A program made the translations under genes and the position numbers. From a virus (taxonomy: Duplodnaviria; Heunggongvirae; Uroviricota; Caudoviricetes), in IMG/VR virus record IMGVR_UViG_3300037010_001573, positions 1-64,000 of that record: 64,000 bases of DNA, one strand, 5' to 3'. The number at the start of each line of letters is the position of its first letter. Position 1 is the first letter of the stretch. Below, piece after piece: positions 908 to 22,916 of the stretch. The notes beneath the pieces are model-generated. The model did not search any database. It saw only the letters and a list, made by a program, of their open reading frames with translations, and had not been told where the DNA came from.

Positions 908-955
908 TTTAACTCTGATATAAAATTACGAATATTAATTCATGTAACCAAATTT
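908..955 (-). promoter_or_regulatory. conserved promoter-like motif, variant
   Basis: near-identical to 14183..14226. Confidence 0.4.
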
Positions 956-2443: not shown

Positions 2444-3439
2444 TTAAGGTTTGGTTATTTGAATCATTTTTTTGATGAATTGTCGTCTTATTTCCATTCC
2501 TTGATGAATGTTATGTATTAATATCCACCATGAACCTGTTTTATTTCCATTATACCCATTATACATTAATTCATTTGTTATAGAATCTCGTTGTAACATG
2601 AATTCAGGGTGTAAGTCTTTGTTTGGTCTTTGGGAATGGAAATGGTTAAGTATTAATTCTACCTCTTCATCATTGAAACCACATTTGTGTTCTATTAAAA
2701 CGCATATATATTCCCAATCATCTTTTTTTTTATATGTTTTTAGATGTTTTAATAATATTTTATATAATTCATATAATGATCTGTGTGGTTTTGTGATTTG
2801 AATCATTTTTTCGATGAATTGTCGTCTTATTTCACGTCCACGTTTTTTATCAATACCCATACACCACCATACTGAACTCTTATCCTTGAACATTATTGTA
2901 TCATCAACACCACCTAACATTTGAGTAAATTCTATATGTTGGGTTTTACTTGGTTTTTGTGATTGAAAGTGTTTGAATAATATTATTTTTTCTTCATTTG
3001 TTATAGATAATGCATTGATACTATTACATATGAATAATTCACCAATATTATTATCCTCGACATTATTGTAGTGTTTCAGTAATATTTTATATAATTCGTA
3101 TATTGGTTTTGGTTTTGGTTTTGTGATTTGAATCATTTTTTTGATAAATTTTATGCGAATTGCTAAACCCGTTTTATAATCTTTCCCAACTAAATACCAC
3201 CACATCCCACCACCCATAAATTCATCACATTTATAGAATTCTGAATGTTGATCTTTATTTGGTTTTTGTGATTGAAAGTGTTCTAACAATAACCCCTTTT
3301 CTTTCCTTGTTATATCAAGATTATTTGTAATTACCTTACATATGAATGGGTATTGTCTTAATGAAGATGTTTCTTCATTTCCTGTATATTTTTGTAATTC
3401 TGTTAGAAGAATAACATACAATTCATTTATTGTTCTCAT
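2444..3439 (-). CDS. hypothetical protein made of three ~105-aa repeats, each ending RRQFIxKMIQITKP
   Basis: triplicated protein and nucleotide repeats (gtgatttgaatcattttttcgatgaattgtcgtc at ~2450, 2800, 3125). Confidence 0.5.
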   Translation of the reverse strand: MRTINELYVILLTELQKYTGNEETSSLRQYPFICKVITNNLDITRKEKGLLLEHFQSQKPNKDQHSEFYKCDEFMGGGMWWYLVGKDYKTGLAIRIKFIKKMIQITKPKPKPIYELYKILLKHYNNVEDNNIGELFICNSINALSITNEEKIILFKHFQSQKPSKTQHIEFTQMLGGVDDTIMFKDKSSVWWCMGIDKKRGREIRRQFIEKMIQITKPHRSLYELYKILLKHLKTYKKKDDWEYICVLIEHKCGFNDEEVELILNHFHSQRPNKDLHPEFMLQRDSITNELMYNGYNGNKTGSWWILIHNIHQGMEIRRQFIKKMIQITKP

Positions 3440-3464
3440 AATATTTGTTGTTTTAAATTATGTT

Positions 3465-3503
3465 ATAAAATTAAGAAAGAAGGCTCGTATAAACAAGCCT
3501 TCT
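3465..3503 (-). terminator. rho-independent terminator (GAAGGCUUGUUUAUACGAGCCUUC plus U-tract)
   Basis: 7-bp GC stem and T-run on the coding (minus) strand, downstream of the 3531..4376 stop; identical copy at 10122..10160. Confidence 0.65.
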
Positions 3504-3530
3504 ATCAATTTTTCACAAATTATTTTTTTA

Positions 3531-4376
3531 TTATCTATTTAATAATATATTCCCGGATGAACCAAAAACGTTATTAGCACCATATGGAGATACTCCTTGT
3601 TGAGCCCATATTCTGTCTGTTTCTGCTTTATACAATTCAATCATTTTAGGTTGTGATAATATTTCTTTAGTTTTAGCATCATACTGAGCAGCTTCATAAT
3701 TACCTTTAGCTACTGCTACTTTTTGTAATGCTGCTTGTTCCGCTTGTACAGTTTGTGATTTAATAGTGGCTGTTTCTTGAATTACTTTAATTTTTCTATT
3801 AATAGCATCTCTATATGATGTTGGAATCGCCATTTTTAGAATTGCTAAATTATTTAAATTAAATCCTTCTTTATCCAACAGTTTAGCTAAATCTTTATTC
3901 ACATTAGCTTCATAGATATTCCGGTGTTGTAGTAATGAATCCGAAGCAAATGTGACAGCGTCATCTAATAGTACTTTTCTTACAATGGTTTTAACTCGAG
4001 TATCAATTAAAGCAGGCATATCTACTCTATACTTAGTAAATAATTCAGCAGCATGTTCTCTTTGTAATTGTAGATTTATAGCTACATCTAAACCGAATGT
4101 TGCTCCATCTCCTGACGTTACATCAATGTGTTCATCTGATGGTGAATCTTCATTTTTATCAGCTGTCCATACTTTGTGTTGTACATTTGTTGGATATAAA
4201 AACACATCTTGTGTTGGTGGGAAATAGAAAATCAATCCTGATTCCATTTGGACATTTGGTGTTCCTTTAGAACTTCCAATTTGATCTACAACTAATGCTA
4301 CTTCTGCTGAATCTGCTGTTGTACATGATGATACACCTACCATCACTAATGCTAACATAACTAGTAATTTCTTCAT
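3531..4376 (-). CDS. SPFH/band-7-like lipoprotein
   Basis: signal peptide with lipobox (MLALVMVGVSSC); prohibitin/band-7-like central region. Confidence 0.5.
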   Translation of the reverse strand: MKKLLVMLALVMVGVSSCTTADSAEVALVVDQIGSSKGTPNVQMESGLIFYFPPTQDVFLYPTNVQHKVWTADKNEDSPSDEHIDVTSGDGATFGLDVAINLQLQREHAAELFTKYRVDMPALIDTRVKTIVRKVLLDDAVTFASDSLLQHRNIYEANVNKDLAKLLDKEGFNLNNLAILKMAIPTSYRDAINRKIKVIQETATIKSQTVQAEQAALQKVAVAKGNYEAAQYDAKTKEILSQPKMIELYKAETDRIWAQQGVSPYGANNVFGSSGNILLNR

Positions 4377-4388
4377 TTTAATTTGTTT

Positions 4389-4571
4389 TTATTGTTTATA
4401 TTTGAAATTTGTGAAAAGCTTTGTTTTTATTGCAATGTATAGTACTAATACAATTCCTAATATTGCTAATACATTAACCAATGTATTTGCTTTATTTAAT
4501 AATGTTATTAGATTCATCATTGCTATGATACTAAGGAATATTCCTACAGGTACTATAAAATATTTTTTCAT
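4389..4571 (-). CDS. small membrane protein
   Basis: 60-aa hydrophobic ORF; a further ~30-aa hydrophobic ORF (MEKLIVLIAVMFLIFILGFVVGSEQNEKNT) lies unlisted at ~4580-4670. Confidence 0.35.
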   Translation of the reverse strand: MKKYFIVPVGIFLSIIAMMNLITLLNKANTLVNVLAILGIVLVLYIAIKTKLFTNFKYKQ

Positions 4572-4675
4572 TATTTTTTATTTAAGTGTTTTTTTCGTTT
4601 TGTTCGGAACCCACCACAAACCCTAATATGAATATTAGAAACATTACAGCTATTAATACTATTAATTTTTCCATT

Positions 4676-4720
4676 TTAACTTTTTGATAAAATTACGAAT
4701 AAAATTTCTACAATCCAAAT
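4676..4720 (-). promoter_or_regulatory. conserved ~45-nt promoter-like motif (minus strand TTGGATTGTAGAAATTTTATTCGTAATTTTATCAAAAAG)
   Basis: TTGGNT, N17, CGTAATTTTA architecture; followed within ~10 nt by the ATG of a small ORF. Confidence 0.5.
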
Positions 4721-4960
4721 TTATTTTAATAAATTCCCAAAAAAAGAAGTTATTGTATTAAAAATATACGAGGCTGATTCAACATCATGACATTCAACAA
4801 TTTCATCATTACCCAATTCTATTCGAACCCCATATATGTTTGGGTAACTAATAGTACTTGATGTTATTATTATTGATGTCCTTGGTGTTTTGGCTTTTTC
4901 ATTGTATATTCTTGATATACCACCAACACCCACTGTAAGTTTCATTCCTGTAGCCGCCAT
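4721..4960 (-). CDS. hypothetical protein
   Basis: ORF track. Confidence 0.3.
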   Translation of the reverse strand: MAATGMKLTVGVGGISRIYNEKAKTPRTSIIITSSTISYPNIYGVRIELGNDEIVECHDVESASYIFNTITSFFGNLLK

Positions 4961-4964
4961 TTGT

Positions 4965-5603
4965 TTATTTTTTAATTTTTAATTTATCGACATTTATACC
5001 AAATTTATCAGCAATTTCATCCATTGTAAGACATATTTCTTTTTCTTCAACAATCTCAGCCCAAACACCATTTTTATATATACATAAATGATCAAATCGC
5101 CCTGTCATAGAATAACCATCGGTTTTTGTTTCACATTTATCAGAAAATATAGATAAACCTGTATGTAAATCATATTTAAATGATATATTTCCTGATTTAG
5201 TCCAAACTTCATAACCTTTTACAGGAATAAATGAACAACCATCAACAAAACCACGTTTAATTGCTTCTTGTATAAAAGCTTTCTCTATTTCTTCTTGAGT
5301 TGCAAGACGGCATTTAAGACTGTTTTTATTTAAACTAAGCCAAGACCATGTCTGATTTCCCATATCATGCCATATTCCTCTCCAAAAACCATACACACGA
5401 CTGGAGCCTTCTTCATCATATGCAAATATATAGGTTTCACCTTTACTTTGATGAATATAAAAAGTATGTACTTTTTTAATAAGATAAGAAGAAAAAATAT
5501 CTGGGAATGTTGCTTCTAATTTTTGTTTCCATGTAGAACACGCTGATTCATATGCTTCTAATACGAATTGTTCAGACACTTGGTAATGTTTTTCTGATTT
5601 CAT
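4965..5603 (-). CDS. hypothetical protein; C-terminal 27 aa identical to ORF 6430..6870
   Basis: shared ~80-bp 3' end. Confidence 0.45.
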   Translation of the reverse strand: MKSEKHYQVSEQFVLEAYESACSTWKQKLEATFPDIFSSYLIKKVHTFYIHQSKGETYIFAYDEEGSSRVYGFWRGIWHDMGNQTWSWLSLNKNSLKCRLATQEEIEKAFIQEAIKRGFVDGCSFIPVKGYEVWTKSGNISFKYDLHTGLSIFSDKCETKTDGYSMTGRFDHLCIYKNGVWAEIVEEKEICLTMDEIADKFGINVDKLKIKK

Positions 5604-5935
5604 TTTATTTAATTACTTTAAAGTGAATATGTTTTGGGAATGTCCCAAATACAAATTTAGTTACATCACATAACCAAACTGATTTAATACCTAAATGATA
5701 TAAACACCCGTTTGGTGGTGTTTTCATAATACGTTTTAATGTTTCATACCCATCAATGGGTTCTGTTGATAACATTATACTAACAGTTTCATTATTATTT
5801 GATAGATAATCTAATAAAGTATCAGCACCACCTACAAATGGTAGGGCTCCTTTTGGTCCTGTCCATTCTGGTAAATCTATATATCAATTATTGTCTTCTT
5901 TATTGAAATCATATTTTACCATATTATTTTTATTA

Positions 5936-5980
5936 TTTTAACCTTTTGGTAAAATTACGACTTTAGATTTTACAATCCAA
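5936..5980 (-). promoter_or_regulatory. conserved promoter-like motif (TTGGATTGTAAAATCTAAAGTCGTAATTTTACCAAAAGGTTAAAA)
   Basis: same element; ATG at 5925. Confidence 0.5.
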
Positions 5981-6428
5981 CTACTTTTTCAATTATTTTT
6001 TTAACTAAAGATATATCTGCCCTTCCATTAAATCTTTTATTAAATTCACCTAATGTTTTCCCGACCAAAGCTTGTTGATTAGGAACAACTCCAATTAAAT
6101 CGGAAACAATACCTCGAATTGATATTTCAATATTTTCTTCAGACATTGGTTTAGGTAAATATACTCGTAAAACATCAGCCTCATCGGATTCAGCTTGAGC
6201 TTGTTCAACCCTACATGCCTTTTCATATATAGACTGGGATTCTTCACGTTGTTTTATTGCTTTGATAATAATCTTCAAAACTTCAGCATCATTCGGTTCC
6301 CAATTTGGGTTAGATTTTTCAGCTTCAACTATTTTCGCTTTAACACTACTTAAAGATGCTTTTGCTATTTGGTTTTGTGTTTTCATTGCATTAATGAAAT
6401 CACTATATATTTGTTCTTTTAAAGACAT
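5970..6428 (-). CDS. hypothetical protein
   Basis: ORF track. Confidence 0.4.
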   Translation of the reverse strand: MSLKEQIYSDFINAMKTQNQIAKASLSSVKAKIVEAEKSNPNWEPNDAEVLKIIIKAIKQREESQSIYEKACRVEQAQAESDEADVLRVYLPKPMSEENIEISIRGIVSDLIGVVPNQQALVGKTLGEFNKRFNGRADISLVKKIIEKVVGL

Positions 6429-6429
6429 A

Positions 6430-6870
6430 TTATTTTTTAATTTTTAATTTATCGACATTTATACCAAATTTATCAGCAATTTCATCCATTGTAAGACATA
6501 TTTCTTTTTCTTCTTTAGCATAATTCCACACTTTTGTAGCCACCACGTCTATTACCATTTCACAGGTTGTTGCTAAACACCATGCTATAAATTTATTTTG
6601 TTTTTTAGCAATTACAAATCTTCTAACAAATGAAATATTATCATCACTAACTAACATCCACATTCCGTTTAGTTTTTTATCCAAAGGATCTGTTAAATAT
6701 ATTGATGGGTATTCATCCCATGTTTGGTATTTACCATCTTTAGTATATTTCCCCCCAGTTGATGTTTTTATAGGATAATAATCACCCTCTGTGGTTGATA
6801 ATATTGTTACCTTTCCATCTTGAATAGTCCACACTGTGTCTCCTTCTTTTAAATCTTCAGATCTTTTCAT
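6430..6870 (-). CDS. hypothetical protein (paralogous 3' end with 4965..5603)
   Basis: ORF track; identical C-terminal EEKEICLTMDEIADKFGINVDKLKIKK. Confidence 0.45.
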   Translation of the reverse strand: MKRSEDLKEGDTVWTIQDGKVTILSTTEGDYYPIKTSTGGKYTKDGKYQTWDEYPSIYLTDPLDKKLNGMWMLVSDDNISFVRRFVIAKKQNKFIAWCLATTCEMVIDVVATKVWNYAKEEKEICLTMDEIADKFGINVDKLKIKK

Positions 6871-7007
6871 TGTTATTCGTTTATTATTAAATATCTTAAC
6901 CCTGATTCTGTTTTTTTAACTATTCCACTTTCTACTATAGTTTGGGTTTGTTTTGTGTTTTGTTGAAACATTATAGATAATGTTTGTTCCATATAAATTA
7001 ATTTCAT

Positions 7008-7055
7008 ATTTTTAACTTTTGGATAAAATTACGACTTTAAATTCTATAAACCAAG
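7008..7055 (-). promoter_or_regulatory. conserved promoter-like motif
   Basis: same element; followed by a short ORF start (~7006). Confidence 0.5.
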
Positions 7056-7058
7056 TTT

Positions 7059-7667
7059 TCAATTCATTTTTCTAAAACTTTTAATTTTATCAAAACCTTT
7101 ATTTTCTATTTTTTGAATATCAGTTTGATTATCTTGTCTTGCTTGAGATTGGTCTATTTTTTTAGCTAAGTATTCTTGTATCCATCTATATACGTCTTGA
7201 GATGTCACAAATTTGGTAATAGGTGTAGATGACAATAAGGGGTATTTAGAAAAGTCCTCTTTTGTTACATCGGAACAGTACCAAGATTTACAATTGTATA
7301 TGATTGGGCAGTTATACTTATCATTTAGATATTCATAACCACTTTTAATACTGTCTGCAATGAACATGTTATTTCGTCTACCGTTTATATATCCGATATT
7401 AACCCTATAGTGTCCTTCTTTTTTATACCATTTATTACTTGTATCAAATTGTTTAATATCTTTACTAAAGTAGAAATCTTCTCCATTATTGTAAATTTGT
7501 ACCATGTTCCCTCCAATGATGAAAGTTAAAACATACATATCACACCCTATGTGGTTTGAATTTTCTACTACAAACTCACCTTTTCTTTCTAGGATTAATT
7601 TAGGATCTTCTCCCCAAACTCCCGAAAGATAATCGTAGTAGTCCTTGTATTTCGACAAAATCTTCAT
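7059..7667 (-). CDS. hypothetical protein
   Basis: ORF track. Confidence 0.4.
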   Translation of the reverse strand: MKILSKYKDYYDYLSGVWGEDPKLILERKGEFVVENSNHIGCDMYVLTFIIGGNMVQIYNNGEDFYFSKDIKQFDTSNKWYKKEGHYRVNIGYINGRRNNMFIADSIKSGYEYLNDKYNCPIIYNCKSWYCSDVTKEDFSKYPLLSSTPITKFVTSQDVYRWIQEYLAKKIDQSQARQDNQTDIQKIENKGFDKIKSFRKMN

Positions 7668-7679
7668 ATTATATTTTTT

Positions 7680-8063
7680 TTAATGAGTATGACGTTTATC
7701 TTTCATAATTGCTAAACGTTCATTTATTCTTTGACAAATTGTATTAATACCATGCTCATAAGGTGACCATGTTTTCATTAAATGGTTTGGTATTTCAATA
7801 AAACTATCATGCTTATCCGATACATCAAATCCTCTGAGTCTACATTCTCTATATAGTTTTTTATATCTATCTCTAATATATCCTATTTTATCATAGAAGA
7901 AAGTAACATGGCCTGTACCTAATCTAAAATGTTTTGGTATGTTTTCAATTTTGGCACGTCCTGATTTTATTGTATTAGGAATTCGGGTTATTTCTCTATG
8001 TTCCGCTCTCAAATGAGCATCACATAATTCAGCGGGTGGGATCCAGCAGTTTATTCTAGTCAT
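7680..8063 (-). CDS. denV: endonuclease V (pyrimidine-dimer DNA glycosylase), T4 DenV-like
   Basis: N-terminal MTRIN...AELCDAHLRAEHREITRI and GTGHVTFFYDK match T4 endoV [27 protein letters not shown] / GAGHVTFFYDK. Confidence 0.8.
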   Translation of the reverse strand: MTRINCWIPPAELCDAHLRAEHREITRIPNTIKSGRAKIENIPKHFRLGTGHVTFFYDKIGYIRDRYKKLYRECRLRGFDVSDKHDSFIEIPNHLMKTWSPYEHGINTICQRINERLAIMKDKRHTH

Positions 8064-8079
8064 AACTTTTATTTTTAAA

Positions 8080-8112
8080 TCTTATATAAAGATAATAAAA
8101 AAGGCTCGGTAA
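8080..8112 (-). terminator. rho-independent terminator, family GGCUUGGUUUACCGAGCC plus UUUUUUAUUAUCUUU
   Basis: follows the ligase stop; the same ~40-nt element recurs at 22917, 23404, 25284 and 38039. Confidence 0.7.
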
Positions 8113-8145
8113 ACCAAGCCTTTTAAAAATTTCCTAAATATTTTA

Positions 8146-9267
8146 TTACTTTAAATCAAATCTATCAATTGCTATTACTTTAGGAAAACGAAGTGAACCA
8201 TCTGTTGTTTTTTCAAAATATTTAACTGTAGCTTGTTTTCCTATAAGTGTATCTTTAATTTGAAATAATTCTTCCAAATACGTCATAGTTCCATTAACAG
8301 TAGCGTTAAACTGTACACCTTCTTGTGTCTTAAATGACAATGTTGCTAATTTACCACTAAATTTTCCTATTCCTTCTTCGTAACCAATGATCTCAAATTC
8401 ATCATCATGAAACGTCTTATGTTTTAGTAAATTATTTGAACGTTTATTTTCATATAATGAATCTAAAACACGAAGCATTTGACCTTCATACCCTAGTTCA
8501 ATATATTCCATTAATTTTATTTTAACTTCACTCTCATTGTTGACTATTTCGTAATCAACAAACACAAATTTAGGATCATTTATTCTATTAACAATTTGTT
8601 GAAGTAAAACCATTCTATCTTCATACCCACGTTCAATCCCATCTATGTAAGGTAAATCATAAACATGATATTCAATAAAATTACGAGATATTGCTAGATC
8701 TTCCATTGTTGGTTTTGTTTTACGAACACATGATATAATAGTGTTAAAATCAACTTCTTTATCTGATGTATATAACTCACCATCTAATATTAGATCTGGA
8801 TTTTCCTCAAACAGATGCTCGAGTATTCTGAATATATGTGGGGCTGATATTATTTTTTTACCATTACGAGACCACATACCATTTGCTTTTAATGTACATC
8901 TAACACCATCTAGTTTATATGAACTACCTAAAGGGTATTTTACTTTATCTAACCGCTTATCAAAATCCTGGGCTAGCATTGGTTGATAAAATACTTCTTT
9001 ATCACAATCAGATATATCTTCCCAATAACCTAATTCTTTACGTTTACTCCATAAAGATGTAGCTTCAGCTATTGCTTGTTGTTCGGCTGTTGTTGCATTT
9101 TTCTTATTTGTGTTTTTAGGAGTACATTTAGTCCAATCCCCAGTAAACATTTTCATCCCTACAAACCCTGTTGTGGTTCTAAAACTGTCACCATCTACTT
9201 CTATAAACCACTCGTTTATATTGTTTTTACTATTTGAACGTTTATATAACGTTGGGAATACTTTCAT
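8146..9267 (-). CDS. ATP-dependent DNA ligase
   Basis: KxDG adenylation motif (YKLDGVRC), OB-fold-like C-terminus; 373 aa. Confidence 0.75.
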   Translation of the reverse strand: MKVFPTLYKRSNSKNNINEWFIEVDGDSFRTTTGFVGMKMFTGDWTKCTPKNTNKKNATTAEQQAIAEATSLWSKRKELGYWEDISDCDKEVFYQPMLAQDFDKRLDKVKYPLGSSYKLDGVRCTLKANGMWSRNGKKIISAPHIFRILEHLFEENPDLILDGELYTSDKEVDFNTIISCVRKTKPTMEDLAISRNFIEYHVYDLPYIDGIERGYEDRMVLLQQIVNRINDPKFVFVDYEIVNNESEVKIKLMEYIELGYEGQMLRVLDSLYENKRSNNLLKHKTFHDDEFEIIGYEEGIGKFSGKLATLSFKTQEGVQFNATVNGTMTYLEELFQIKDTLIGKQATVKYFEKTTDGSLRFPKVIAIDRFDLK

Positions 9268-9270
9268 AAC

Positions 9271-10095
9271 TTATTTCTTTTTAAATTGTTCAAACCATTT
9301 TCTTGTTATATTATCATTCTCATCTGTAAACTTATCAAGTTCTGACGAAGGCATTTTCATAAGATAATTGAGTTGATTCAATATTTCAGCCTCACTATAA
9401 CTTCTTTCTTTTTGATAGTCTGCACCATTATTATAAGCATTTGTAACAATACTATGTAAACTTGTAGGAAAATCTTTTCCAACATTAATATCTATATAAT
9501 AAGACAATAATTGTTCTAATGATAAAGATTCTTCAATTGTTTCTTGTTTAGGTTCTTCGATATAATCTTCCAATGATGCACGTTCAAAATCTTCGTCATT
9601 TATAAAAATAGGTTCTTCTTTTGGAATGATGATTTTGTAATTTCTTAAATCTCCTCGACCTTTCCAATTACAATCGTCATTACCGCTTACTGCACTAATT
9701 TCAGCAACAGAAGTCTTGATTCCGTGAAACTTTTCAACCTCAATAAACTCACAACTTGGATTCTTAACAAACCATTCTAGAAACTCATTATTAATAGCTT
9801 GTACTCCATCTGCAATCAAATCTTGGTCTGTTGTTAAAATAATTTTTTTACCTTTGGGTTTAAAAACATTTTTGACATCATCACTTGTGAATTTATAAGC
9901 TATTTTATTAGCTCCAATAAAATACTCCCCTTCTTTAATTTTTTCATCATTAGTGATGTAGATGTTTTGGTTTTTATATTTATGAAAATTTTTATAAAAT
10001 TCTGTAAGTAAACTAGTAGAGTCAAGATTCAATCTATCTTCTATTTTCAATAACCTACTTGGTTTATCTGTTCGTAATACGTGTATGTTTTTCAT
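9271..10095 (-). CDS. hypothetical protein
   Basis: ORF track. Confidence 0.4.
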   Translation of the reverse strand: MKNIHVLRTDKPSRLLKIEDRLNLDSTSLLTEFYKNFHKYKNQNIYITNDEKIKEGEYFIGANKIAYKFTSDDVKNVFKPKGKKIILTTDQDLIADGVQAINNEFLEWFVKNPSCEFIEVEKFHGIKTSVAEISAVSGNDDCNWKGRGDLRNYKIIIPKEEPIFINDEDFERASLEDYIEEPKQETIEESLSLEQLLSYYIDINVGKDFPTSLHSIVTNAYNNGADYQKERSYSEAEILNQLNYLMKMPSSELDKFTDENDNITRKWFEQFKKK

Positions 10096-10121
10096 AACAT
10101 TTATTGTTTTAAATTATGTTA

Positions 10122-10160
10122 TAAAATTAAGAAAGAAGGCTCGTATAAACAAGCCTTCTA
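10122..10160 (-). terminator. rho-independent terminator (same family as 3465..3503)
   Basis: identical hairpin, downstream of the 10178..10630 stop. Confidence 0.65.
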
Positions 10161-10177
10161 TCAAATATTTTGAATAT

Positions 10178-10630
10178 CTATTTAGATGTAAAAAAAGCGG
10201 CAACAACACCAATAATAAATAAAATAAAAGCCCCAAACATATAAAGGTCGGTAAGTGTTATAGGATTATCATCTTCTTGTTGTGTTGTTTCATTTATTTT
10301 TTCTCGCAAAGCATCTGGCGTTTCTGCCGTTATTGTATCACATTTATTAGTATGGTGGTTCATTATTAAATAATAATATAACATATGGTTATTATTACTA
10401 AATGAATGTATTTCGTTTTCATTAATATAGGTTGGTCGTGTGTATCTTGATGATGTTTCACTTTCACTAACATGGTTGTAAGATGCAACTTCGTGTTCTG
10501 ATGAATTAATATGTTCAGATGACACATGTGTGCTTTCCGATACATGGCTGCTTGAAACATGGGACCCACCACCACCTCTAGAATATACGAATGATGATGT
10601 TAATAGTAATAAAATAAGTAATTTTTTCAT
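10178..10630 (-). CDS. secreted/membrane-anchored Ser/His-rich protein
   Basis: N-terminal signal peptide, SHVSS repeats, C-terminal TM helix. Confidence 0.4.
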   Translation of the reverse strand: MKKLLILLLLTSSFVYSRGGGGSHVSSSHVSESTHVSSEHINSSEHEVASYNHVSESETSSRYTRPTYINENEIHSFSNNNHMLYYYLIMNHHTNKCDTITAETPDALREKINETTQQEDDNPITLTDLYMFGAFILFIIGVVAAFFTSK

Positions 10631-10651
10631 TGTTTTTGTTTTAAATGTTAA

Positions 10652-10870
10652 TTATTTGTTTTCTTTTTTTAACAGTTTTACTCCTCGTTTTATTAAATAA
10701 AACATCAAACATGTTGAAAGCGATATTGTTATCAACAATAATATAGTTCCAATATAATTCAATGATTTATTATGTGTATGTGTTAAATAATCACTTAAAT
10801 TGAACATTTGTGTTAATCCAAATAAAGAACACATATACATCAATATATTTAAACTAAATATTGCTTTCAT
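10652..10870 (-). CDS. small membrane protein
   Basis: hydrophobic 72-aa ORF. Confidence 0.3.
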   Translation of the reverse strand: MKAIFSLNILMYMCSLFGLTQMFNLSDYLTHTHNKSLNYIGTILLLITISLSTCLMFYLIKRGVKLLKKENK

Positions 10871-10882
10871 AATATTGTTGTT

Positions 10883-11170
10883 TTATAGTTCTGAGTTTTC
10901 GATTTGTGTTTCGTTTTTAGCAATAGAAGATGTTGATTTACCTATTCCTAAACCTTCATATCTTAGAAGCGCGTTAGCAACATATGTTTGTAAAGCAATT
11001 AAATTTTTCTTATTTGATATTTCCTCAATTATTTTTAACCTATCAGATTCTTTAATTTTGCTTTCACTTAGGTGATCTAAAGCTGCTTTTTGTGCTGCTT
11101 TAAAATCTCTAGTTTCAAATACTAAATTAGCAATTTTGGCTAATGTAGATTCAATTTGGACTGGTTTCAT
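10883..11170 (-). CDS. hypothetical protein
   Basis: ORF track. Confidence 0.35.
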   Translation of the reverse strand: MKPVQIESTLAKIANLVFETRDFKAAQKAALDHLSESKIKESDRLKIIEEISNKKNLIALQTYVANALLRYEGLGIGKSTSSIAKNETQIENSEL

Positions 11171-11175
11171 TATGA

Positions 11176-11469
11176 TTAGTAATCGTTTTTAATTAATATA
11201 TTTAATAAATTTCCTAAAAATACATAAAAAAGATTCAAATAAACATAAAATTCATAATAATCTTTTACAGCTTTACTAGACACTATGTGTGGTACTCCAA
11301 AAACATAGAGTAAAGTATAAACAACGATACAATAATTAACAAATAATACCCTTGCTTTAAATAGAGGTTCATTATCACTACGCCATAACCATTTAACCAT
11401 CCCTTCAGTAGCCCAATTATATATCATTAATACAATTATTGCTTCTGCTAATTCTTTTAATTCTTTCAT
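11176..11469 (-). CDS. small membrane protein
   Basis: ORF track; conserved promoter motif immediately upstream. Confidence 0.4.
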   Translation of the reverse strand: MKELKELAEAIIVLMIYNWATEGMVKWLWRSDNEPLFKARVLFVNYCIVVYTLLYVFGVPHIVSSKAVKDYYEFYVYLNLFYVFLGNLLNILIKNDY

Positions 11470-11475
11470 AACCTT

Positions 11476-11526
11476 TAATTTTTTAACTTTTGGATAAAAT
11501 TACGACTTTAAATTCTATAAACCAAA
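11476..11526 (-). promoter_or_regulatory. conserved promoter-like motif
   Basis: ends ~6 nt before the ATG of 11176..11469. Confidence 0.5.
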
Positions 11527-11988
11527 TTTTTTAGCACCCTCTTTCTTATTACCACCACCACGTTGGCGATACTTCTTATATCTATACTCGGTTATGAGTT
11601 TTAAAATAATATAGTTAGTACGAGGCTTAATCTCGTCAAGGTCGAACTTAATCTATAAAAGTAGGGTCACGTAGTTTTACATTGCATCACAATAACCAAT
11701 TAAAACAGAATTTAATGGTAATAACTACTTGCTGAGAACTTATTTGTGTTGTAGACAAGACCTTATGTCTCTTTCCGCAATTCCTTTCTCAAGGGAACAA
11801 CACATCTACCATTACTGATAGTATCTTTATGCAAAAACTTACCTACCTATTAGAAAACAACCCAGTTGCTTAATTAGGTATTTACAAAGGCTTCAATGTT
11901 TAACCTAACATCATTGGTTTAGAGTGTAGAATGATAACACTTTTAATAAAAACCCGGCAAATATATTACAGGGATTGATAATATAGTT

Positions 11989-12444
11989 TTATTTTGCAGA
12001 AATAATTTTGATTCTTTTATTTAATGAATCAACTTGTTCTTGAATACTTTTTGATTCTTTTTCAAATCTCTCAGTAGTTCTTGTAATTTTTTCTTCAATT
12101 TGTTTAACAACCAACAAATGGTTATCAATGTTTTGTAAATAAATATCTACATAACGGGTTTGTTTTTCATTGGTATCAACTTGATTGACTTTGATGTTTG
12201 TGTATGATTCTGTTAAAGAAGCATTTGCATCTTCTAATTTATCATTCAATTCATCAAGTTCTTGTTCGTTGTTGAATTTTAATGTTGCTAAATTCTTGTT
12301 GTGTATTAGAATTTCTTTGTTAAGTGTTTTAACCACTCTTGTTACGAAAGAATCTAATTTACCGTCATTACCTAATTTAAGTAATTCTGAAATTTTTCTA
12401 ACGATTGCAAATGAACTTTTTGATGTTGTTTTAACTGTTGTCAT
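11989..12444 (-). CDS. coiled-coil protein
   Basis: ORF track; heptad-like K/E-rich sequence. Confidence 0.4.
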   Translation of the reverse strand: MTTVKTTSKSSFAIVRKISELLKLGNDGKLDSFVTRVVKTLNKEILIHNKNLATLKFNNEQELDELNDKLEDANASLTESYTNIKVNQVDTNEKQTRYVDIYLQNIDNHLLVVKQIEEKITRTTERFEKESKSIQEQVDSLNKRIKIISAK

Positions 12445-12466
12445 AATTTTTTTGTTTTAATTGTTT

Positions 12467-13900
12467 TTAAATAATTGCTCTTGTTTTTACTTCTATTAAG
12501 GGAAGAAGTGTTACCCTTTCTTTTACAATATCTTTTCTAATACTTGGAGGTTCTGGTATTTCAACACATAGGTTTGTTGGTCTTAATGAATGTTGTATTA
12601 ATGTTTGTTGTTTTTGATATTCTTGTTCTGTAGAAATTTCAAATGTTTTATCTTCAAGACGTTTATAATCAAATAGAACCTCATCCCATGTTAAATAATT
12701 CAATATATCAATTCTACCTGTTGTTGTTTTATAAATAACACCTTGTTTACAGTTTCCATAATTAGATAATGATAAAACATAATCAGGTATTTTATTCTTC
12801 ATAGCATTTAATGTTGTAACATCATAAGGTTTTCCAAGTCTTTCATATTCAACTATTTCTTCGGGTGTTGCATATCTCCACGTTGATGTATCCTCTTTTT
12901 TGATTAACATCCACCCGTTTGATGAATGACCATTTGCTGTTATAACTGGTTGTAGATACCCACAATCTTCTCTTTGTTTATAAACATAACAACAATTAAA
13001 ACCATCAGTACTATTTGTGTATAGTTGTACTATATACTCATCGGATTTAAATATTTGTTTACCCTTGTTTTTATTTTCTATTAACCTTTGAGAAAAACCA
13101 TTAGCTTCATCATAAGTTGCAAACCACGTTACATACTCTTTTTCGGAAGTAGTTGTTTTCTCTTTTTCACACACCATTGCTGTCTTAAAGGGGATATCAG
13201 GTGATTCCGTTATTTTATCAATATCACCAACATTTGAACTTCCATATTTTTTAATAAAAACAACATATGTCTCAACACCAAACAATTCAGTTTTTGTTTT
13301 ATTATTTGGTTCTATAATTTGTTGATAGCCTATTAATTTTATTAAATCCGAAACAGATATTTCTTTTTCACACTTTTGTCGGTTGTTATCAACACCATAG
13401 GAACCATATTTACCAATTCCGTGTGGTTCATAAGTTGATCTATTAAGTCCCCAATTATCAAATATAAACATTTTATGGCTTTGTAAACCATAATACGAAT
13501 CATTCATACCTCGTGGGATACCACGGCTGTTTTTAACAGCCCACAACATAGCAGCCCTGTATATATCTTCAGTAAATTCAGAAGTATAATTAACATAAAA
13601 TGAAACACGAGATGGTATAGCATTTAATGTTTTAACATTATAAGGTTTTCCAAGTCTTTCATATTCAACTATTTCTTCGGGTGTTGCATATCTCCAATCC
13701 AACAGTTCATGCTTTTTATCAAAAGTTAAACTAGTATTCCCATTTTCTCCACTTCCATCTAAATCAGTAACAGGACAAATGTAATCTTTATCTATTCTTT
13801 GTCTAAAACAGTAATCTTTTTTAACACAATTAGATGAATGTAGTGTAGTATTTAACATTACAATATATTCTCCAACTTTGAATCCATCTGGTATAAACAT
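12467..13900 (-). CDS. hypothetical protein with internal duplication (WRYATPEEIVEYERLGKPY occurs twice)
   Basis: ORF track; internal repeat. Confidence 0.45.
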   Translation of the reverse strand: MFIPDGFKVGEYIVMLNTTLHSSNCVKKDYCFRQRIDKDYICPVTDLDGSGENGNTSLTFDKKHELLDWRYATPEEIVEYERLGKPYNVKTLNAIPSRVSFYVNYTSEFTEDIYRAAMLWAVKNSRGIPRGMNDSYYGLQSHKMFIFDNWGLNRSTYEPHGIGKYGSYGVDNNRQKCEKEISVSDLIKLIGYQQIIEPNNKTKTELFGVETYVVFIKKYGSSNVGDIDKITESPDIPFKTAMVCEKEKTTTSEKEYVTWFATYDEANGFSQRLIENKNKGKQIFKSDEYIVQLYTNSTDGFNCCYVYKQREDCGYLQPVITANGHSSNGWMLIKKEDTSTWRYATPEEIVEYERLGKPYDVTTLNAMKNKIPDYVLSLSNYGNCKQGVIYKTTTGRIDILNYLTWDEVLFDYKRLEDKTFEISTEQEYQKQQTLIQHSLRPTNLCVEIPEPPSIRKDIVKERVTLLPLIEVKTRAII

Positions 13901-13912
13901 AATTTTTATATT

Positions 13913-14170
13913 TTAGTAATTATAATCAAAATCAGCGTCATCATCATCCATGAAGTAACTATCAATATCATCCTTAGTAGTTAATAAATCATTTCCCTCA
14001 GCAATTAGGGTATATACAGACCCATCACTTTCTTGGATAGATGCTTTATCAAGTAATTCTTCCATGTTTTCAACATCAAATTCTTCAAAATAATTTTCTA
14101 TAGTTGCCTTCCACATTTCATCATTCTGTAATTGAGAGTGGATTTCGGCTAATTGGTCGTAAATTGTCAT
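13913..14170 (-). CDS. acidic hypothetical protein
   Basis: ORF track. Confidence 0.35.
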   Translation of the reverse strand: MTIYDQLAEIHSQLQNDEMWKATIENYFEEFDVENMEELLDKASIQESDGSVYTLIAEGNDLLTTKDDIDSYFMDDDDADFDYNY

Positions 14171-14182
14171 ATTATCTGTTTT

Positions 14183-14226
14183 TAAATCTTTTGTAAAATT
14201 ACGAATATTAATTCATGTAACCAAAT
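14183..14226 (-). promoter_or_regulatory. conserved promoter-like motif, variant (TTGGTTACATGAATTAATATTCGTAATTTTAC)
   Basis: upstream of 13913..14170. Confidence 0.45.
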
Positions 14227-14916
14227 TTTTTAATGAATTTCTGTAAATTCTTTTAAATATAAATCTATAACTAGTTTTGTTTTTTCTAAATCTTCAATGA
14301 ATTGTTGTTTTTTTCGACATCTTACAATTCGTTTTATTATATCAAACTCCCAAGAATTCAAACCATGTTGTTCAGCGAATAAATAAAGACTACCATTGTC
14401 GTTATTATAATGCTTAGGAGCTTCCATTGTTGTTGGTGTTTTTTCGCTCATTATATAGACTGTGTTTTGTTATAATATTTTTTAGTTTTGTTTGTTGTTT
14501 CTAAATAATTATCTCTAATTGGTTCCCACATAGTAATTGGATTCAAATTCAACTCCCAAAATTGTTTTTTAGGTTTATCTTTTGTTTCTTGTTGGATTTG
14601 TTTACTTTCTTTTTCAACTTTCATTTTTAGAATATTAAATTATATAATTCTGTGAATATTTTACAAACTACTGCAGTTATTATTGACCAAGACACAATTG
14701 CTACCCAATTCCATTTAGTTGGGTTTATATTATTTTTTTTGTTTTGGTTCTTCATTTATTTTTATAATAGATTTCATATGTTCGTTTAATTCTCCCATTA
14801 TTTTTTATTCTTTTATATTCTACCAAACCATCATTTGATATGCGTTTAAATACATCAAATATTTCTAATGGGTATTTATCAGTATCATTATCATAAATTT
14901 TACGTTATCACTCAGC

Positions 14917-15267
14917 TTACTCAGCGATGTAGATATTAGAAGGTCTTTTATATTCTTCTAATTTACCAGTTGTGTTACTCCAGTCATCTACTCTTTCCGT
15001 ATTTGGTTTGGCTTCACTTTTACAAGCGTAATGTATTTGACATCCAGCAATAATTAAATGATTTTCATCGCTTCCTACTTTCGCAAACCAGTTAGAACTT
15101 CTAACATTTGTTTTTATTCCTAAAATAGAATCGCTAACTATTTCAACTTCTCCCCAAACTGATCTATATTGTTTTCCATCAGGAGCATAAAACCAATTGT
15201 CTGTTGTAATCAAAAATTTTCCTTTCATAATATTTTGTTTGTAAATAAAAAGCCGAAGTGATAACAT
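14917..15267 (-). CDS. hypothetical protein
   Basis: ORF track; conserved 5'-UTR element upstream. Confidence 0.4.
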   Translation of the reverse strand: MLSLRLFIYKQNIMKGKFLITTDNWFYAPDGKQYRSVWGEVEIVSDSILGIKTNVRSSNWFAKVGSDENHLIIAGCQIHYACKSEAKPNTERVDDWSNTTGKLEEYKRPSNIYIAE

Positions 15268-15397
15268 ACGTTAACCGCTATTCAAGCTTTTGGTTAAATT
15301 TAATAATTTGTTTGTGTTTGTTAGTACTTGTCTTTAATCGATAATTCAGGTGTACTTTTTCCTGAACATCGGTTAGCGTCCGCCGTTATGTGAGATT

Positions 15398-15772
15398 TTA
15401 GAAAACCTCGTAATATTTAAAAACACCATCAATCTGAAAATTTCTAATTCCAATATTCATATTTAGAATTGGATCTTCATATTTTGGAAAATGAAAATTC
15501 CATTTTCCTAAATCATCCATTTTATACTCTTTTTTTTCTTCGTCAAAATCAAAAACAAAAGAGTATAATTCGTTAAAATTATTTGTAATAATCTTAAACC
15601 TTACGTCTGTAAATTCTTCAACACATTTAAAAACACCTATTTCAATACCATTTTTTAATAGTTTACCTGTAAAAGAAGATTTAAAAGGTCTAATAAAAAC
15701 ATCACATAACAGCGGTTTTGAGCTATTTCCGTTTTCGACTAAATTTTCAGTTTGTTTTGCACTTATATTCAT
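15398..15772 (-). CDS. hypothetical protein
   Basis: ORF track. Confidence 0.4.
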   Translation of the reverse strand: MNISAKQTENLVENGNSSKPLLCDVFIRPFKSSFTGKLLKNGIEIGVFKCVEEFTDVRFKIITNNFNELYSFVFDFDEEKKEYKMDDLGKWNFHFPKYEDPILNMNIGIRNFQIDGVFKYYEVF

Positions 15773-16931
15773 TGTGTTTAATTTAAAAATTAGTTTGTAC
15801 TTTTATGTTTTGTCTTGAATTTTCGGCACTAGACAAAGCCGCAGGACGTTATGTGAGATTGTTATGACCTCATTTCAAAACAATATTTTTTGTTTTTTAT
15901 ATTGTTTCCACTTTTTTTCTGCAATATCAATCGCATTATTTAGCATTGAATAATATTTCATCCCAAACTCTATTTTTTTATCTGAAAAATAGCCATCTAA
16001 AAAAGCACCTATATATTTTTGTTTTTCTGTCATAATATTGTTTTTTCAATGTTTTTTAACTCAAACCTTTCAATTGCTTTTAGAATAAAGGTTTTACTTT
16101 TTTCTTTTTCACAAAGTCTTTCGGCTTCTGTTTCAGCTTCTTCAAGTGTTTCAAATCTTTTGTAAGGCATATTTTTACCTTCAACATAAATCATAAAAAA
16201 ATTGTCCATTGTATTTTTTTTTTTTAAATTACCCGCGCTACTTATAATAGGTGTTTGTAAATATCATCCGAATTTATAGGATCGTATAGGCTAGTGTCTA
16301 TTTAAACAACGTTTTATGTATAACCACATCGTTTAGTCTAATTGGGAATTTTAAACGCGCTAAAGTGTGGTATTTTAATTTCTCAAACTCACAACACTTT
16401 TTTAAGTTCCCGTAGGTTTCAACTCATTCGCCTTGAATAAAAACTATTATTGATTTTCTTTTCATTATAATATATGTTTTACAACAATTTTTAAATCTTC
16501 TAAACAAGCATTGTACATTCTAATGTCATTAAATGATTTTGAATAAAATGAATCATGTTGTTTTTTATTTTTAAAATTAGTTCTCAACTCTTTTAAAGAT
16601 GAATTTTCTTTAATTTTAAACTGCTTTACCAAACTTTTCGATAAGTTATTAAGCAACCCAATTATTTCTTCTTGGGTTGCTTTTTTACAATATTCCTCTG
16701 TCTTATTCAAATCTTGATTGCAAATTAGGCATTGTTAATATTGACAACCCTTCTGTTGCTCTTAATTCAGTCATTTTTAAAAAACATTTGTATGCTTTTT
16801 TATAGTTCCCATTCGCTAATGTTTTATTCATTGTTTTTTGTACTTCAATTGCTTTCATTTTGATTTGTTTTGGTATATAATTGCATAATTGTAATACTTT
16901 TATTGCGTGTATGTTGGAGTTATGGTTAATG

Positions 16932-17273
16932 CTACGATAACTTTTCAGCAGAAAATTCCTCTAACATTAGTCTAGCTTTCGTTTTGAACATTTTACCATT
17001 TTGAAAATATGCTTTCCAAATATCTCCGCTTTCTTCTCCTTCTCCGTTTATACAGAAAACTACATTTGGATGATTTTTAGAATATGCTTTCATATCTTCT
17101 TCACAATCATACCATTTTATTTCGTTATCAAATAAACTTGAATAATTAGTACTATCTGTGATTTCTTGTTCGTAATCAGTTCTAAAATCATCTCCTGAAA
17201 TAATTTCTAATTTGTGTCGTGTGTAATATCCCATAATGTTTTTTGTTTTGATGAACCGCATTAACCACAACAA
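16932..17273 (-). CDS. hypothetical protein
   Basis: ORF track; conserved 5'-UTR element upstream. Confidence 0.4.
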   Translation of the reverse strand: MLWLMRFIKTKNIMGYYTRHKLEIISGDDFRTDYEQEITDSTNYSSLFDNEIKWYDCEEDMKAYSKNHPNVVFCINGEGEESGDIWKAYFQNGKMFKTKARLMLEEFSAEKLS

Positions 17274-17467
17274 GTGTTTGGTAAAAAAGCGGGTTCGGTT
17301 ATTAATTTAAAGTCTGTTTTTTATTTGTTAATTTCGTCCTTAATCTGAAAGTTCAGTCCTTACTTTTCCTGAACATCAGTTAGCGTCCGTCGTTCCCCAC
17401 TAAATACCCAATTTGACCATTTTCTATTCCACCATTTTTTGATTGTATCCCCCCCATAATGTTTTAA

Positions 17468-17516
17468 TTTTTTTAACTTTTGGATAAAATTACGACTTTA
17501 GATTTTACAATCCAAA
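17468..17516 (-). promoter_or_regulatory. conserved promoter-like motif
   Basis: same element, upstream of a short ORF starting ~17456. Confidence 0.5.
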
Positions 17517-17518
17517 TC

Positions 17519-17893
17519 TTACGGATAATATTTTTTATAAAGTTCTGCTTCTAATTTTCCACAGTCATTACATTGCACTCCTCTTCCAACTGTATTTAAC
17601 ATCTGATCATACGAAGTAAGATCATTTAGTTCTTTTAATTCTTCTTCGGTTAGATCTACTCTTTCTAAATTGTCCCACCAAGTTTTGGTATACCATTTTT
17701 TTGAAAATTCTGAGTTTGATTTTATTTTAAGGTTGAATCCTTCTTGTGTATAATATTGAAAATCTATCTCAGGTTGCATCCAATCAGGTTCATTTCCACG
17801 TTCAAGTTTACAATTGTTTAGGTAATTCTTATAAGCATCAATCAAGTTCCACTTTTCAATTTGAGCTTCTACCTCAGGAATTGGAAGGCCCAA
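17519..17893 (-). CDS. hypothetical protein
   Basis: ORF track. Confidence 0.4.
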   Translation of the reverse strand: MGLPIPEVEAQIEKWNLIDAYKNYLNNCKLERGNEPDWMQPEIDFQYYTQEGFNLKIKSNSEFSKKWYTKTWWDNLERVDLTEEELKELNDLTSYDQMLNTVGRGVQCNDCGKLEAELYKKYYP

Positions 17894-17964
17894 TGATATG
17901 AATCCGTGATAACAATCTTCTTTTTATTCACCGTAGTGATGGCATGTTTCTAATCTAATACCCA

Positions 17965-18303
17965 TTATTTCCAAAAGATTTGAATTATCATTATACAAAG
18001 TGCTAATCCTAAACATGCTAGTGTTTTTCCGGTTAATGGTTCTCCAAACCACACATATGACATTATTGTGAAAATTATAGCTCCTGTTGAAAACCCCAAT
18101 AAACGTGAAGGCCAAAGCTGTCCATCAAAATGTTCCACTAAACGTTTTACTGAGAGTATATACAGATATGAGATTGGAATCCCGATACATGCTACTGCTA
18201 ATGTGTTATTTTTAAACCATTGCCATCTAAATTGTCCTTGTAGTTGTATGAATGTAAGTATACTTGCTACTGCTCCATAAAATATTCCTATTATAAAATT
18301 CAT
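17965..18303 (-). CDS. 4-TM membrane protein (small transporter-like)
   Basis: hydrophobic 112-aa ORF. Confidence 0.4.
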   Translation of the reverse strand: MNFIIGIFYGAVASILTFIQLQGQFRWQWFKNNTLAVACIGIPISYLYILSVKRLVEHFDGQLWPSRLLGFSTGAIIFTIMSYVWFGEPLTGKTLACLGLALCIMIIQIFWK

Positions 18304-18841
18304 ATATAATTATTTTTTATATTTCCAAATAAAATTATGAGCTGATTTTCTTCTCCCTTTGCATACTTCACATATAGCATATGCGGGTGTTCCGGTTTGA
18401 GCAAAGGCTTCACCCATTGATTTATATTCAGCTATAAGATTTCCTTGTTTATCAAATTGTAAGACAGCTGTACTAGTATCTAAATCCCAAGTTATCTTTT
18501 GCCCTTTTAATTTACTACTAACTGTAGGGTTTTTATACCTCTTTGTTTATCTCCTATTTTTTGTTTAGCAGATTCAGTTTGAAAACTAGGACCACCACCC
18601 CCTTTATTTTTATTCAAAAGTTCAATATTCCAACATTGGAATACTTCAATCCACCATTGTTCCCAAAATTCTCAGTTACTTTCTTCAACTTCATCAATTA
18701 CTTCAAGACATACATCTTTACCAAAATTAACTCTATACTCTTTTAACCTTCTATAGGAATCATTAGTTTTACCTAAATAAACAGGTATATTATTTTCTAC
18801 TAAAATGTAAATTAAAATCATAATGGCGCGTTTACTGTAAA
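18304..18841 (-). pseudogene. GIY-YIG homing endonuclease, disrupted by an in-frame TGA and a frameshift
   Basis: minus-strand translation gives MILIYILVENNIPVYLGKTNDSYRRLKEY, stop, EFWEQWWIEVFQCWNIELLNKNKGGGG, then frameshift, then a Seg/I-TevI-like C-terminal module (...KSAHNFIWKY). Confidence 0.55.
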
Positions 18842-18867
18842 TATTACACCATTATGGAGATATGCAA

Positions 18868-22890: not shown

Positions 22891-22916
22891 AACCTTTATT
22901 TTACTTTCTTATATAA

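Follow-up and report, generated by a model that had tools for sequence, protein, structure and literature searches.

The primary sigma factor of Bacteroidetes (sigma-ABfr) reportedly reads promoters made of a -33 TTTG and a -7 TAnnTTTG element. The -7 signature is given as TAHHTTTG, with T-12, A-11, T-8, T-7, and T-6 nearly invariant (Baez 2019, PMC6847099; Ryan 2020, PMC7366714), and G at -5 is nearly invariant in promoters of Flavobacterium johnsoniae and of Bacteroidetes (Baez 2019, PMC6847099). The middle promoters of the Cellulophaga crAss-like phage phi14:2 were mapped by primer extension, are used by the rifampicin-sensitive RNA polymerase of the flavobacterial host, and are also transcribed by E. 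coli RNA polymerase in vitro (bioRxiv 10.1101/2020.03.07.982082). In T4-type phages, cassettes called PeSLs (promoter-early stem-loops) are repeated between the small orphan open reading frames (ORFs) of hyperplastic regions (Arbiol 2010, PMC2839356; Comeau 2014, PMC4122927). Here, we analyze a motif with the core TTG-N20-TAhhTTTA that recurs 27 times in 64,000 nucleotides of a tailed phage (Caudoviricetes; IMG/VR virus record IMGVR_UViG_3300037010_001573, positions 1 to 64,000; the window) and that we read as a set of probable promoters.

A Single Bipartite Motif Recurs on the Coding Strand

The window has a GC content of 28%, and its minus strand is the coding strand for nearly all ORFs and for all 20 tRNA genes (41064–49193). 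A first-pass annotation had proposed two promoter families, one with at least eight intergenic copies on the coding strand within 4676–17516 and one with five copies inside the tRNA region. Searching for the first family core, CGTAATTTTAYCMAAAAG, with up to two mismatches returned 5 matches (4680, 5942, 7016, 11487, and 17477) where 0.02 were expected. CGTAATTTTA is present at seven window sites, six of them within 4676–17516, and the count of eight is reached only if the hairpin-type sites at 8117 and 10152 are added. The 36-mer that defines the second family occurs twice exactly (41204–41239 and 49422–49457) and once with 3 mismatches (42717–42752), versus 0 expected; the other two copies (49376 and 49782) are partial and have TTGGTTACCTAA in common, so the number five holds only loosely. 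A looser pattern, TTGG-N17-23-TAnnTTT, gave 23 matches on the minus strand, 21 of which span exactly 30 nt, versus 19 matches with scattered spans on the plus strand. Thus, the two families are sub-types of one motif rather than separate entities, and all copies share the core aaaa-TTG(G)-N20-TA(A/T)(T/C)TTTA.

We built a position weight matrix (PWM) from 24 seed sites and scanned the window with a cut-off of 15 bits. All 26 matches that it detected lie on the minus strand, with 0 on the plus strand. A 27th site, with a 19-nt spacer, lies at 91–120 (TTG..CGTATCTTTA). The motif sits exclusively on the coding strand, as had been proposed. With a 20-nt spacer, TTG-N20-TAhhTTTN has 25 coding-strand matches, while any other spacer from 16 to 24 nt yields at most 4. 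The final base was left free in this search and is A in all 25 window sites. Other positions that the search left free are also conserved: G follows TTG in 21 of the 24 seed sites, A is found at position 11 after TTG in every one of them and T at position 20 in 23, and an upstream A-tract is common to the sites. The base that precedes TTG is T in 14 of 24 seed sites; A at the predicted +1 (21/24) is only suggestive. The motif is embedded in repeat units of 60–95 nt, and spacers are near-identical within sub-families. Exact scans of IMG/VR with the class A and class B cores (see below) retrieved no match, showing that, at this degree of identity, the cassettes are unique to the phage of the window.

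The motif is also strongly biased in position. Of 26 cores, 21 lie entirely in intergenic sequence, which makes up no more than 20% of the window, so that coding regions do not carry the motif at a similar frequency. An ORF-opening ATG comes 14–36 nt after the final A of the motif at 17 of 26 sites; sites of the tRNA region instead stand ahead of tRNA clusters. Beyond the window start, 7–8 more sites lie in the next 4.8 kb. The last 5 kb of this extension, in which a gene for a sigma-like protein sits, have no motif sites, and neither do the 6.7 kb upstream of the window (replication module). When the intergenic regions that lack the motif were searched for another promoter family, nothing more than a vague ATATATTTAT signal emerged.

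Class A cores (TTGGATT..CGTAATTTTA; all coordinates are on the minus strand) lie at 4688–4718, where ATG comes 14 nt after the last A, and at 7024–7054, 11495–11525, and 17485–17515, with ATG 17, 26, and 28 nt downstream, respectively. The PWM also placed class A cores at 5950–5980 and 14194–14224 (TTGGTTACATGAATTAATATTCGTAATTTTA), and another one (921–951) stands in tandem with a core at 832–862 (TTAATTAATTTTA), upstream of ORF 168–782. Class C comprises the exact second-family copies at 41209–41239 (upstream of tRNA-Gln) and 49427–49457, and the copy with 3 mismatches at 42722–42752 in the tRNA region; class C-like cores were found with the PWM at 49346–49376 (TTGGTTACCTAA..TAATTTTA) and 49752–49782 (TTGGTTACCTAA..TATTTTTA). 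TAGG replaces TTGG at 28082–28112 (PWM score 27.5 bits) and at 33482–33512 (31.6 bits; ATG 25 nt downstream). The PWM further recovered the core at 31187–31217 (TTGTAG..TATCTTTA), and the core at 32864–32894 (TTGGTTTAG..TATCTTTA) has an ATG 25 nt downstream. At 43248–43278, 19 nt ahead of an ATG, the core has the form that dominates in relatives (CGTATATTTA). The weakest core (16.4 bits) lies within a glycosyltransferase cluster at 55568–55598, with ATG 17 nt downstream. Class B sites are described with their hairpins below.

The Motif Resembles Bacteroidetes -33/-7 Promoters but Ends in A

The geometry TTGGNN-N17-TAnnTT is compatible with both sigma-70 and Bacteroidetes -33/-7 promoters; geometry alone therefore does not discriminate between them, but the sequence does. 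Individual sites match TTGACA/TATAAT at 6–7 of 12 positions, below the scan threshold of 9/12, and the sigma-70 consensus scan showed no enrichment (114 found versus 128.9 expected). Thus, the sites are poor matches to TTGACA-N16-18-TATAAT even though the spacer fits. On the contrary, T at -8, -7, and -6 is invariant, and all 24 seed sites and 26 PWM sites have a TAHHTTT -7 element with no G at -10/-9, a fit that the search pattern imposed in part, although the pattern did not force A-11 or the missing G. TTG stands exactly 20 nt upstream of the -7 element, within the 19–21 nt at which TTTG/TTG is expected in Bacteroidetes promoters. The likeness to sigma-ABfr promoters also covers the invariant T-12, the AT-rich spacer, and the short A-rich leader without a Shine-Dalgarno sequence. 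These results bear out the earlier judgment that the element is closer to the Bacteroidetes than to the E. coli consensus.

The sites nevertheless differ from host promoters in three respects. They end in A everywhere (25/25 in the window), while host promoters have the nearly invariant G at -5. The -33 TTG(G) is far more conserved in the phage and is barely visible in host promoters. Finally, the phage sites have extra fixed positions: A near -24, TT at -16/-15, and the upstream A-tract.

The phi14:2 promoters, as read from the genome, have the frame TTG-N20-TAnnTTTG, and the g110 promoter (TTGGATATCTCAGAATTAAGTATTATCTTTG) is nearly identical to the window class C sequence (TTGGTTACCTAAGAGATTATTATTATCTTTA). 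In both phages the TTG-N20-TAnnTTT frame has a conserved A at position 11 after TTG and is also placed upstream of tRNA genes. However, the last base is G in phi14:2 and A in the window phage, phi14:2 promoters are few, and a fusion to terminators is not reported there. The two phages also belong to unrelated lineages, Crassvirales and, for the window, Immutovirus-like myoviruses, and no sigma-like gene is annotated within the 50 kb of phi14:2 that we examined. A second parallel is provided by the early promoters of T4, which likewise number dozens, are strong and unusually uniform, extend the host consensus by an upstream A-tract and extra fixed bases, and drive small host-takeover genes and tRNAs; the host consensus is a different one, and activity of the window sites is predicted from their sequence. 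The proposal that the elements are promoters is thus supported, as far as sequence analysis goes, by the strand and position bias, the fixed bipartite geometry, the upstream A-tract, and the near-identity to mapped phi14:2 promoters.

The Motif Is Conserved in a Clade That Includes Flavobacterium Phage Immuto

We next compared the window with its relatives. In IMG/VR relatives (∼65% ligase identity), the motif is found on the coding strand only, and its last base is A at 90, C at 2, T at 2, and G at 0 of 94 sites. G-type (TAnnTTTG) matches in the same relatives fall mostly inside coding sequence and few are promoter-like. A 250-aa sigma-like protein is encoded on contig L027 (18337–19089), ∼7.6–8.4 kb past window position 1 on the gene-downstream side, and its best cultured relative (42% identity) is found in Flavobacterium phage vB_FspM_immuto (160 kb; host, Flavobacterium sp. 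LMO8). The immuto layout matches that of the window phage: polymerase, GroES/EL, nuclease, glycosyltransferases, DUF4494, ThyA, tRNAs, a small-ORF block, the sigma-like gene, and baseplate/tail genes. We found no literature on immuto promoters. With a 20-nt spacer, 34 immuto sites end in A, 1 in T, and 0 in G. The A-ending sites are concentrated at 60.9–76.2 kb (26/34), in the small-ORF block that immediately precedes the sigma-like gene; the structural part of the genome (∼70 kb) holds only 4 of the 34.

All three lineages share the A-tract, the TTG, a purine-A near -24, TT(C) at -16 to -14, TA..TTTA, and an A-rich leader with TTAAAA, while spacers diverge between lineages. The genes behind the motif are less stable. 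In 13 relatives, 25 of the 41 ORFs around the ligase gene have no homolog in the same region; the ligase itself is present in 13/13. Thus, the motif is kept across the clade while the genes that it serves change.

A Third of the Sites Are Fused to Terminators in PeSL-Like Cassettes

Seven sites (3496, 8117, 10152, 22944, 23431, 25311, and 38065) have the form aaaGGCTTGGTTTACCGAGCCtttttt-ATTATCTTTA and constitute class B. In these sites, a stem of 10–11 bp with a 4-nt loop is directly followed by a T-tract; the 5' arm of the stem contains the -33 TTG, and the T-run serves as the promoter spacer. At 3466–3503, for example, the 11-bp stem (3478–3503) holds the TTG, the T-tract forms the spacer, and TAATTTTA follows. 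The other composites are at 8087–8124 (stem 8099–8124; TATCTTTA; after the DNA ligase gene), 10122–10159 (stem 10134–10159), 22914–22951, 23401–23438, 25281–25318 (upstream of the PARP-like gene, 24063–25265), and 38035–38072. Three class B sites are the top-scoring terminator-like sites within window positions 1–20000, and class B folding energies range from -15 to -19 kcal/mol.

The hairpin is conserved as a structure. In twelve distinct variants, drawn from the window and from relatives, the 11-bp stem is paired in 95.5% of cells, versus only 22–70% in slid controls. Four pairs show compensatory changes on both sides, and the covariation score was reached by 0 of 500 shuffles. Class B sites thus combine the stem, short loop, T-run, and compensatory changes expected of rho-independent terminators. 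Two further sites have a separate terminator directly upstream: the hairpin and T-run at 123–150 ends 2 nt before the core at 91–120, and that at 49472–49500 lies 14 nt before the class C core at 49427–49457. In total, 9 of 27 sites have an overlapping or directly upstream terminator, versus 14 of 400 random windows (3.5%). The arrangement is shared by immuto, where TTG lies inside a terminator stem at 8 of 34 sites. To our knowledge, neither the invariant A at -5 nor a -33 element built into a terminator stem has been described previously.

The resulting cassette, composed of terminator, promoter, A-rich leader, and ATG, measures 60–95 nt and is repeated among poorly conserved small ORFs. It resembles PeSLs in several ways. 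A PeSL is a unit of up to ∼100 bp made of an AT-rich upstream sequence, a host-type early promoter, a terminator stem-loop, a translation start region, and ATG; it is repeated between small orphan ORFs in hyperplastic regions, and its stem-loop may overlap promoter elements. The window likewise has promoter, AT-rich upstream sequence, and terminator in one unit (repeat units of 57–94 nt), located among the poorly conserved small ORFs of a hyperplastic region. However, the promoter is of the Bacteroidetes type here and of the sigma-70 type in PeSLs, the window cassettes have no Shine-Dalgarno sequence, and it is the -33 element that lies inside the stem. About a third of the sites are compact fusions in which the terminator T-tract doubles as promoter spacer, an arrangement that would insulate each small gene or tRNA cluster from upstream transcription and then re-initiate. 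By analogy with T4-type phages, the 60–95 nt cassettes are probably also recombination substrates; the hints are indirect and consist of the near-identical cassettes and of an 84-nt exact repeat at two ORF ends (described below).

We also considered the ends of short Logan contigs as candidate transcript ends and rejected them: they fall inside repeated cassettes, as expected for assembly breaks at repeats.

The Host Is Probably a Member of the Bacteroidota

The start regions of the phage genes are informative about the host. A Shine-Dalgarno core precedes only 2 of 92 genes, versus 9% of random positions; A is over-represented from -14 to -10 and occupies -3 in 68% of genes. This A-rich, Shine-Dalgarno-poor pattern has been described for F. 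johnsoniae. Among contigs of GTDB genomes and metagenome-assembled genomes (MAGs) that encode the sigma-like protein, 8 of 13 are labeled Bacteroidota, and the top match is a Winogradskyella MAG; MAG binning is weak evidence for a host, but it agrees with the other lines. The best match of the PARP-like protein is in Cellulophaga phage phi4:1 (35% identity). No PWM matches were found in 39 kb of phi4:1, and this phage is not a useful model for the motif. The closest isolate homologs of the ligase are found in alphaproteobacterial phages (∼39% identity). Taken together, four independent lines, namely the promoter type, the start regions, the cultured relatives (immuto with the same motif), and the MAG bins, give good support to a Bacteroidota host, at which the first-pass annotation had hinted; its class is probably Flavobacteriia.

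Which Polymerase Reads the Sites?

We propose that the sites are non-late, most likely early, promoters read by the Bacteroidota host RNA polymerase with its primary sigma factor, a reading to which we assign a probability of about 0.6. A site would consist of an upstream A-tract, possibly UP-element-like, a -33 TTG(G), a spacer of exactly 20 nt, and an extended -7 element, (TTC/TTA)nTA(A/T)(T/C)TTTA. Transcription would start ∼5 nt after the -7 element and produce an A-rich leader of 10–30 nt without a Shine-Dalgarno sequence (..TTAAAA..aaaGTT), followed by ATG. The sites had been described as probable early promoters: the promoter part of that description is supported, and the timing is a prediction.

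Several observations weigh against this proposal. Every site has A at -5 where host promoters have a near-invariant G, and recognition by an unmodified host sigma factor is therefore assumed. Because spacers are near-identical in sub-families, part of the conservation reflects recent duplication or gene conversion and not independent selection. Downstream of several sites there are just very short ORFs or non-coding DNA. Finally, the phage encodes a protein that could itself read bipartite promoters: the sigma-like protein matches Pfam Sigma70_r2 (27.7 bits versus a cut-off of 24) and its C-terminal end resembles a helix-turn-helix.

The sites could then be phage-specific ("middle") promoters, recognized by the host core polymerase with the 250-aa sigma-like protein or by a host holoenzyme that the phage has reprogrammed, with the invariant A at -5 as the discriminating base. 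We regard this as a serious but clearly less probable alternative. It would account for the A found at -5 in the window (25/25), in relatives (90/94), and in immuto (34/35), never replaced by G, when the host consensus and the phi14:2 promoters both have G. The sigma-like gene is very well conserved, with at least 599 matching IMG/VR contigs, and is found together with A-type sites in the window phage, in its relatives, in the MAG-binned contigs, and in immuto; its product has the region-2 match and the helix-turn-helix-like segment. However, the protein and its profile matched no sigma factor when compared by sequence with solved structures. Its immuto homolog, gp118, is encoded directly ahead of the baseplate and tail genes, the usual place of a late sigma, and the structural module that it heads is almost devoid of A-type sites, suggesting that it is a late sigma. 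The nearest promoter upstream of the immuto sigma-like gene cluster (at 76191) is itself of the A type, which favors a polymerase already present before synthesis of the phage sigma; transcription of the cluster by its own product would be circular, except if virions carry the protein. In addition, we saw no other plausible early-promoter family in the small-ORF block. Both the late-sigma position and the A-type promoter of the cluster thus favor the host holoenzyme as the reader of the A-type sites. We consider it possible, but again clearly less probable, that TAnnTTTA is a phage-private promoter code in which the change from host G to phage A at -5 separates phage from host transcription. 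This single-base switch would be kept throughout a very abundant aquatic clade of ∼160-kb Flavobacteriia phages, and the reader of the code would be their conserved, highly divergent sigma-like protein or a phage-modified host RNA polymerase.

Two other explanations depart further from the host-polymerase reading. The units might not be promoters at all but MITE-like repeats, recombination hot-spots, operators for a phage protein, or leader and processing elements that act at the RNA level, as the near-identity of 60–95 nt copies, "spacer" included, the tie to the hyperplastic gene region, and the extension of the conserved sequence into the leader could suggest. This is improbable: across lineages only the sigma-contact positions are fixed while spacers diverge, orientation strictly follows transcription, the start codon comes at a fixed distance, tRNA clusters also have sites ahead of them, and neither terminal inverted repeats nor target-site duplications were seen. 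A role in recombination would moreover be compatible with promoter function, as in PeSLs. Least probable are ordinary sigma-70 -35/-10 promoters (TTGnnn-17-TAnnnT) in a non-Bacteroidota host, for instance a low-GC alphaproteobacterium. The geometry does correspond to the optimal 17-bp spacer, the six best-conserved sigma-70 positions are kept, the closest isolate homologs of the ligase point to alphaproteobacterial phages, and E. coli RNA polymerase transcribes the analogous phi14:2 promoters in vitro. Against this stand the low consensus match and the scan without enrichment, the invariant T at -8 and -6, which is a Bacteroidetes signature, the Shine-Dalgarno-depleted, A-rich start regions, and a closest cultured relative that infects Flavobacterium and has the same motif, together with the Bacteroidota labels of the MAG contigs.

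The underlying biology is ordinary: host-matched phage promoters with PeSL-like cassettes. The A-for-G exchange at -5 may mean either that the primary sigma tolerates A when the -33 element is strong or that the phage uses a specificity factor of its own. From sequence alone, the analysis assigns a host (Bacteroidota, most likely Flavobacteriia) to an uncultured phage clade with a wide distribution, and it supplies a promoter model with which transcription units can be annotated in the phages of that clade. It also provides compact natural terminator-promoter-leader parts for Flavobacterium genetics and broadens the PeSL concept, mobile regulatory cassettes of hyperplastic regions, to hosts other than those with sigma-70.

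Promoter-like sequences near the sigma-like gene are more variable. Directly upstream of the sigma operon, relatives have a TTGG-N19-TA..TT frame that ends in TTGA, TTGT, TTAA, or TATC, and these divergent -7 endings hint at promoter sub-classes. In contigs L042, L046, L060, L063, L070, L082, and L085, TTGGA(A/G)GTATAAAATTTCTTTCGTAACTTCG followed by ccctacgagggtt lies ∼700 nt upstream of the sigma-like gene; this element has the promoter frame with a different -7 and may precede a structured RNA.

Gene Content and Other Features of the Window

The proteins of the window are also encoded on a 161,448-bp contig (Ga0373633_0000032 of JGI metagenome 3300035661) and in several Logan assemblies; a megablast search of window positions 4000–18000 against GenBank phages found no close DNA match. 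The window and its flanks encode a family-B DNA polymerase, an intein-containing clamp-loader-like ATPase, a PD-(D/E)XK nuclease, GroES/GroEL, a glycosyltransferase cluster, Ro/TROVE-like, CCA-adding-enzyme-like, and PARP-like proteins, thymidylate synthase, an ATP-dependent DNA ligase, and numerous small ORFs of unknown function.

An Rfam scan of the window matched only tRNAs. Two of the Rfam tRNA-like sequences (41368–41435 and 45150–45263, minus strand) were not called by ARAGORN; the latter, with a length of 114 nt, may include an intron. A T-arm-like sequence, GTGGGTTCGAATCCTAC, at about 49200–49285 (minus) was called by neither program. Hairpins of the form AAGTGGTAAG-loop-GTTACTTCG recur on the minus strand at 41140–41175, 40980–41012, 40845–40877, and 41720–41748, just upstream of tRNA or tRNA-like sequences, and may be a processing signal. 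A second box, GTTCATTGAYATATTGGATAAAA, is kept 20–30 nt downstream of three tRNA-region promoters (41239, 42752, and 49376), at ∼41165–41185, ∼42685–42705, and ∼49300–49325 (minus), inside the predicted transcripts. Outside the window, a GC-rich non-coding island of ∼320 nt (contig L027, 15100–15420, ∼4.4–4.7 kb past window position 1) has no Rfam match at E-values up to 1 and is directly followed by an A-type promoter.

Repeats also occur within genes. Two different ORFs (212 and 146 aa) have an exact 84-nt repeat (4965–5048 and 6430–6513) as their 3' ends, suggesting recent recombination or paralogy inside the cassette-rich block. A 477-aa ORF contains internal 80-mers that are 98% identical (12801–12880 and 13617–13696), and a 331-aa ORF has three internal units of ∼330 nt each (2448–3314). 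The AAA/clamp-loader-like genes (window 61621–63321 and contig L030) match Intein_splicing weakly and flank an endonuclease-like ORF, and a GIY-YIG/NUMOD1 homing-endonuclease-like gene comes after the DNA polymerase gene. The thymidylate-synthase-family protein is unusually long (339 aa; 18868–19887) and is accompanied by a cluster of four or five glycosyltransferases and a hexapeptide transferase (50161–58257). Genes for DpdA and the queuosine pathway are also present in immuto. The phages of this clade may have modified DNA bases, which could affect promoter recognition.

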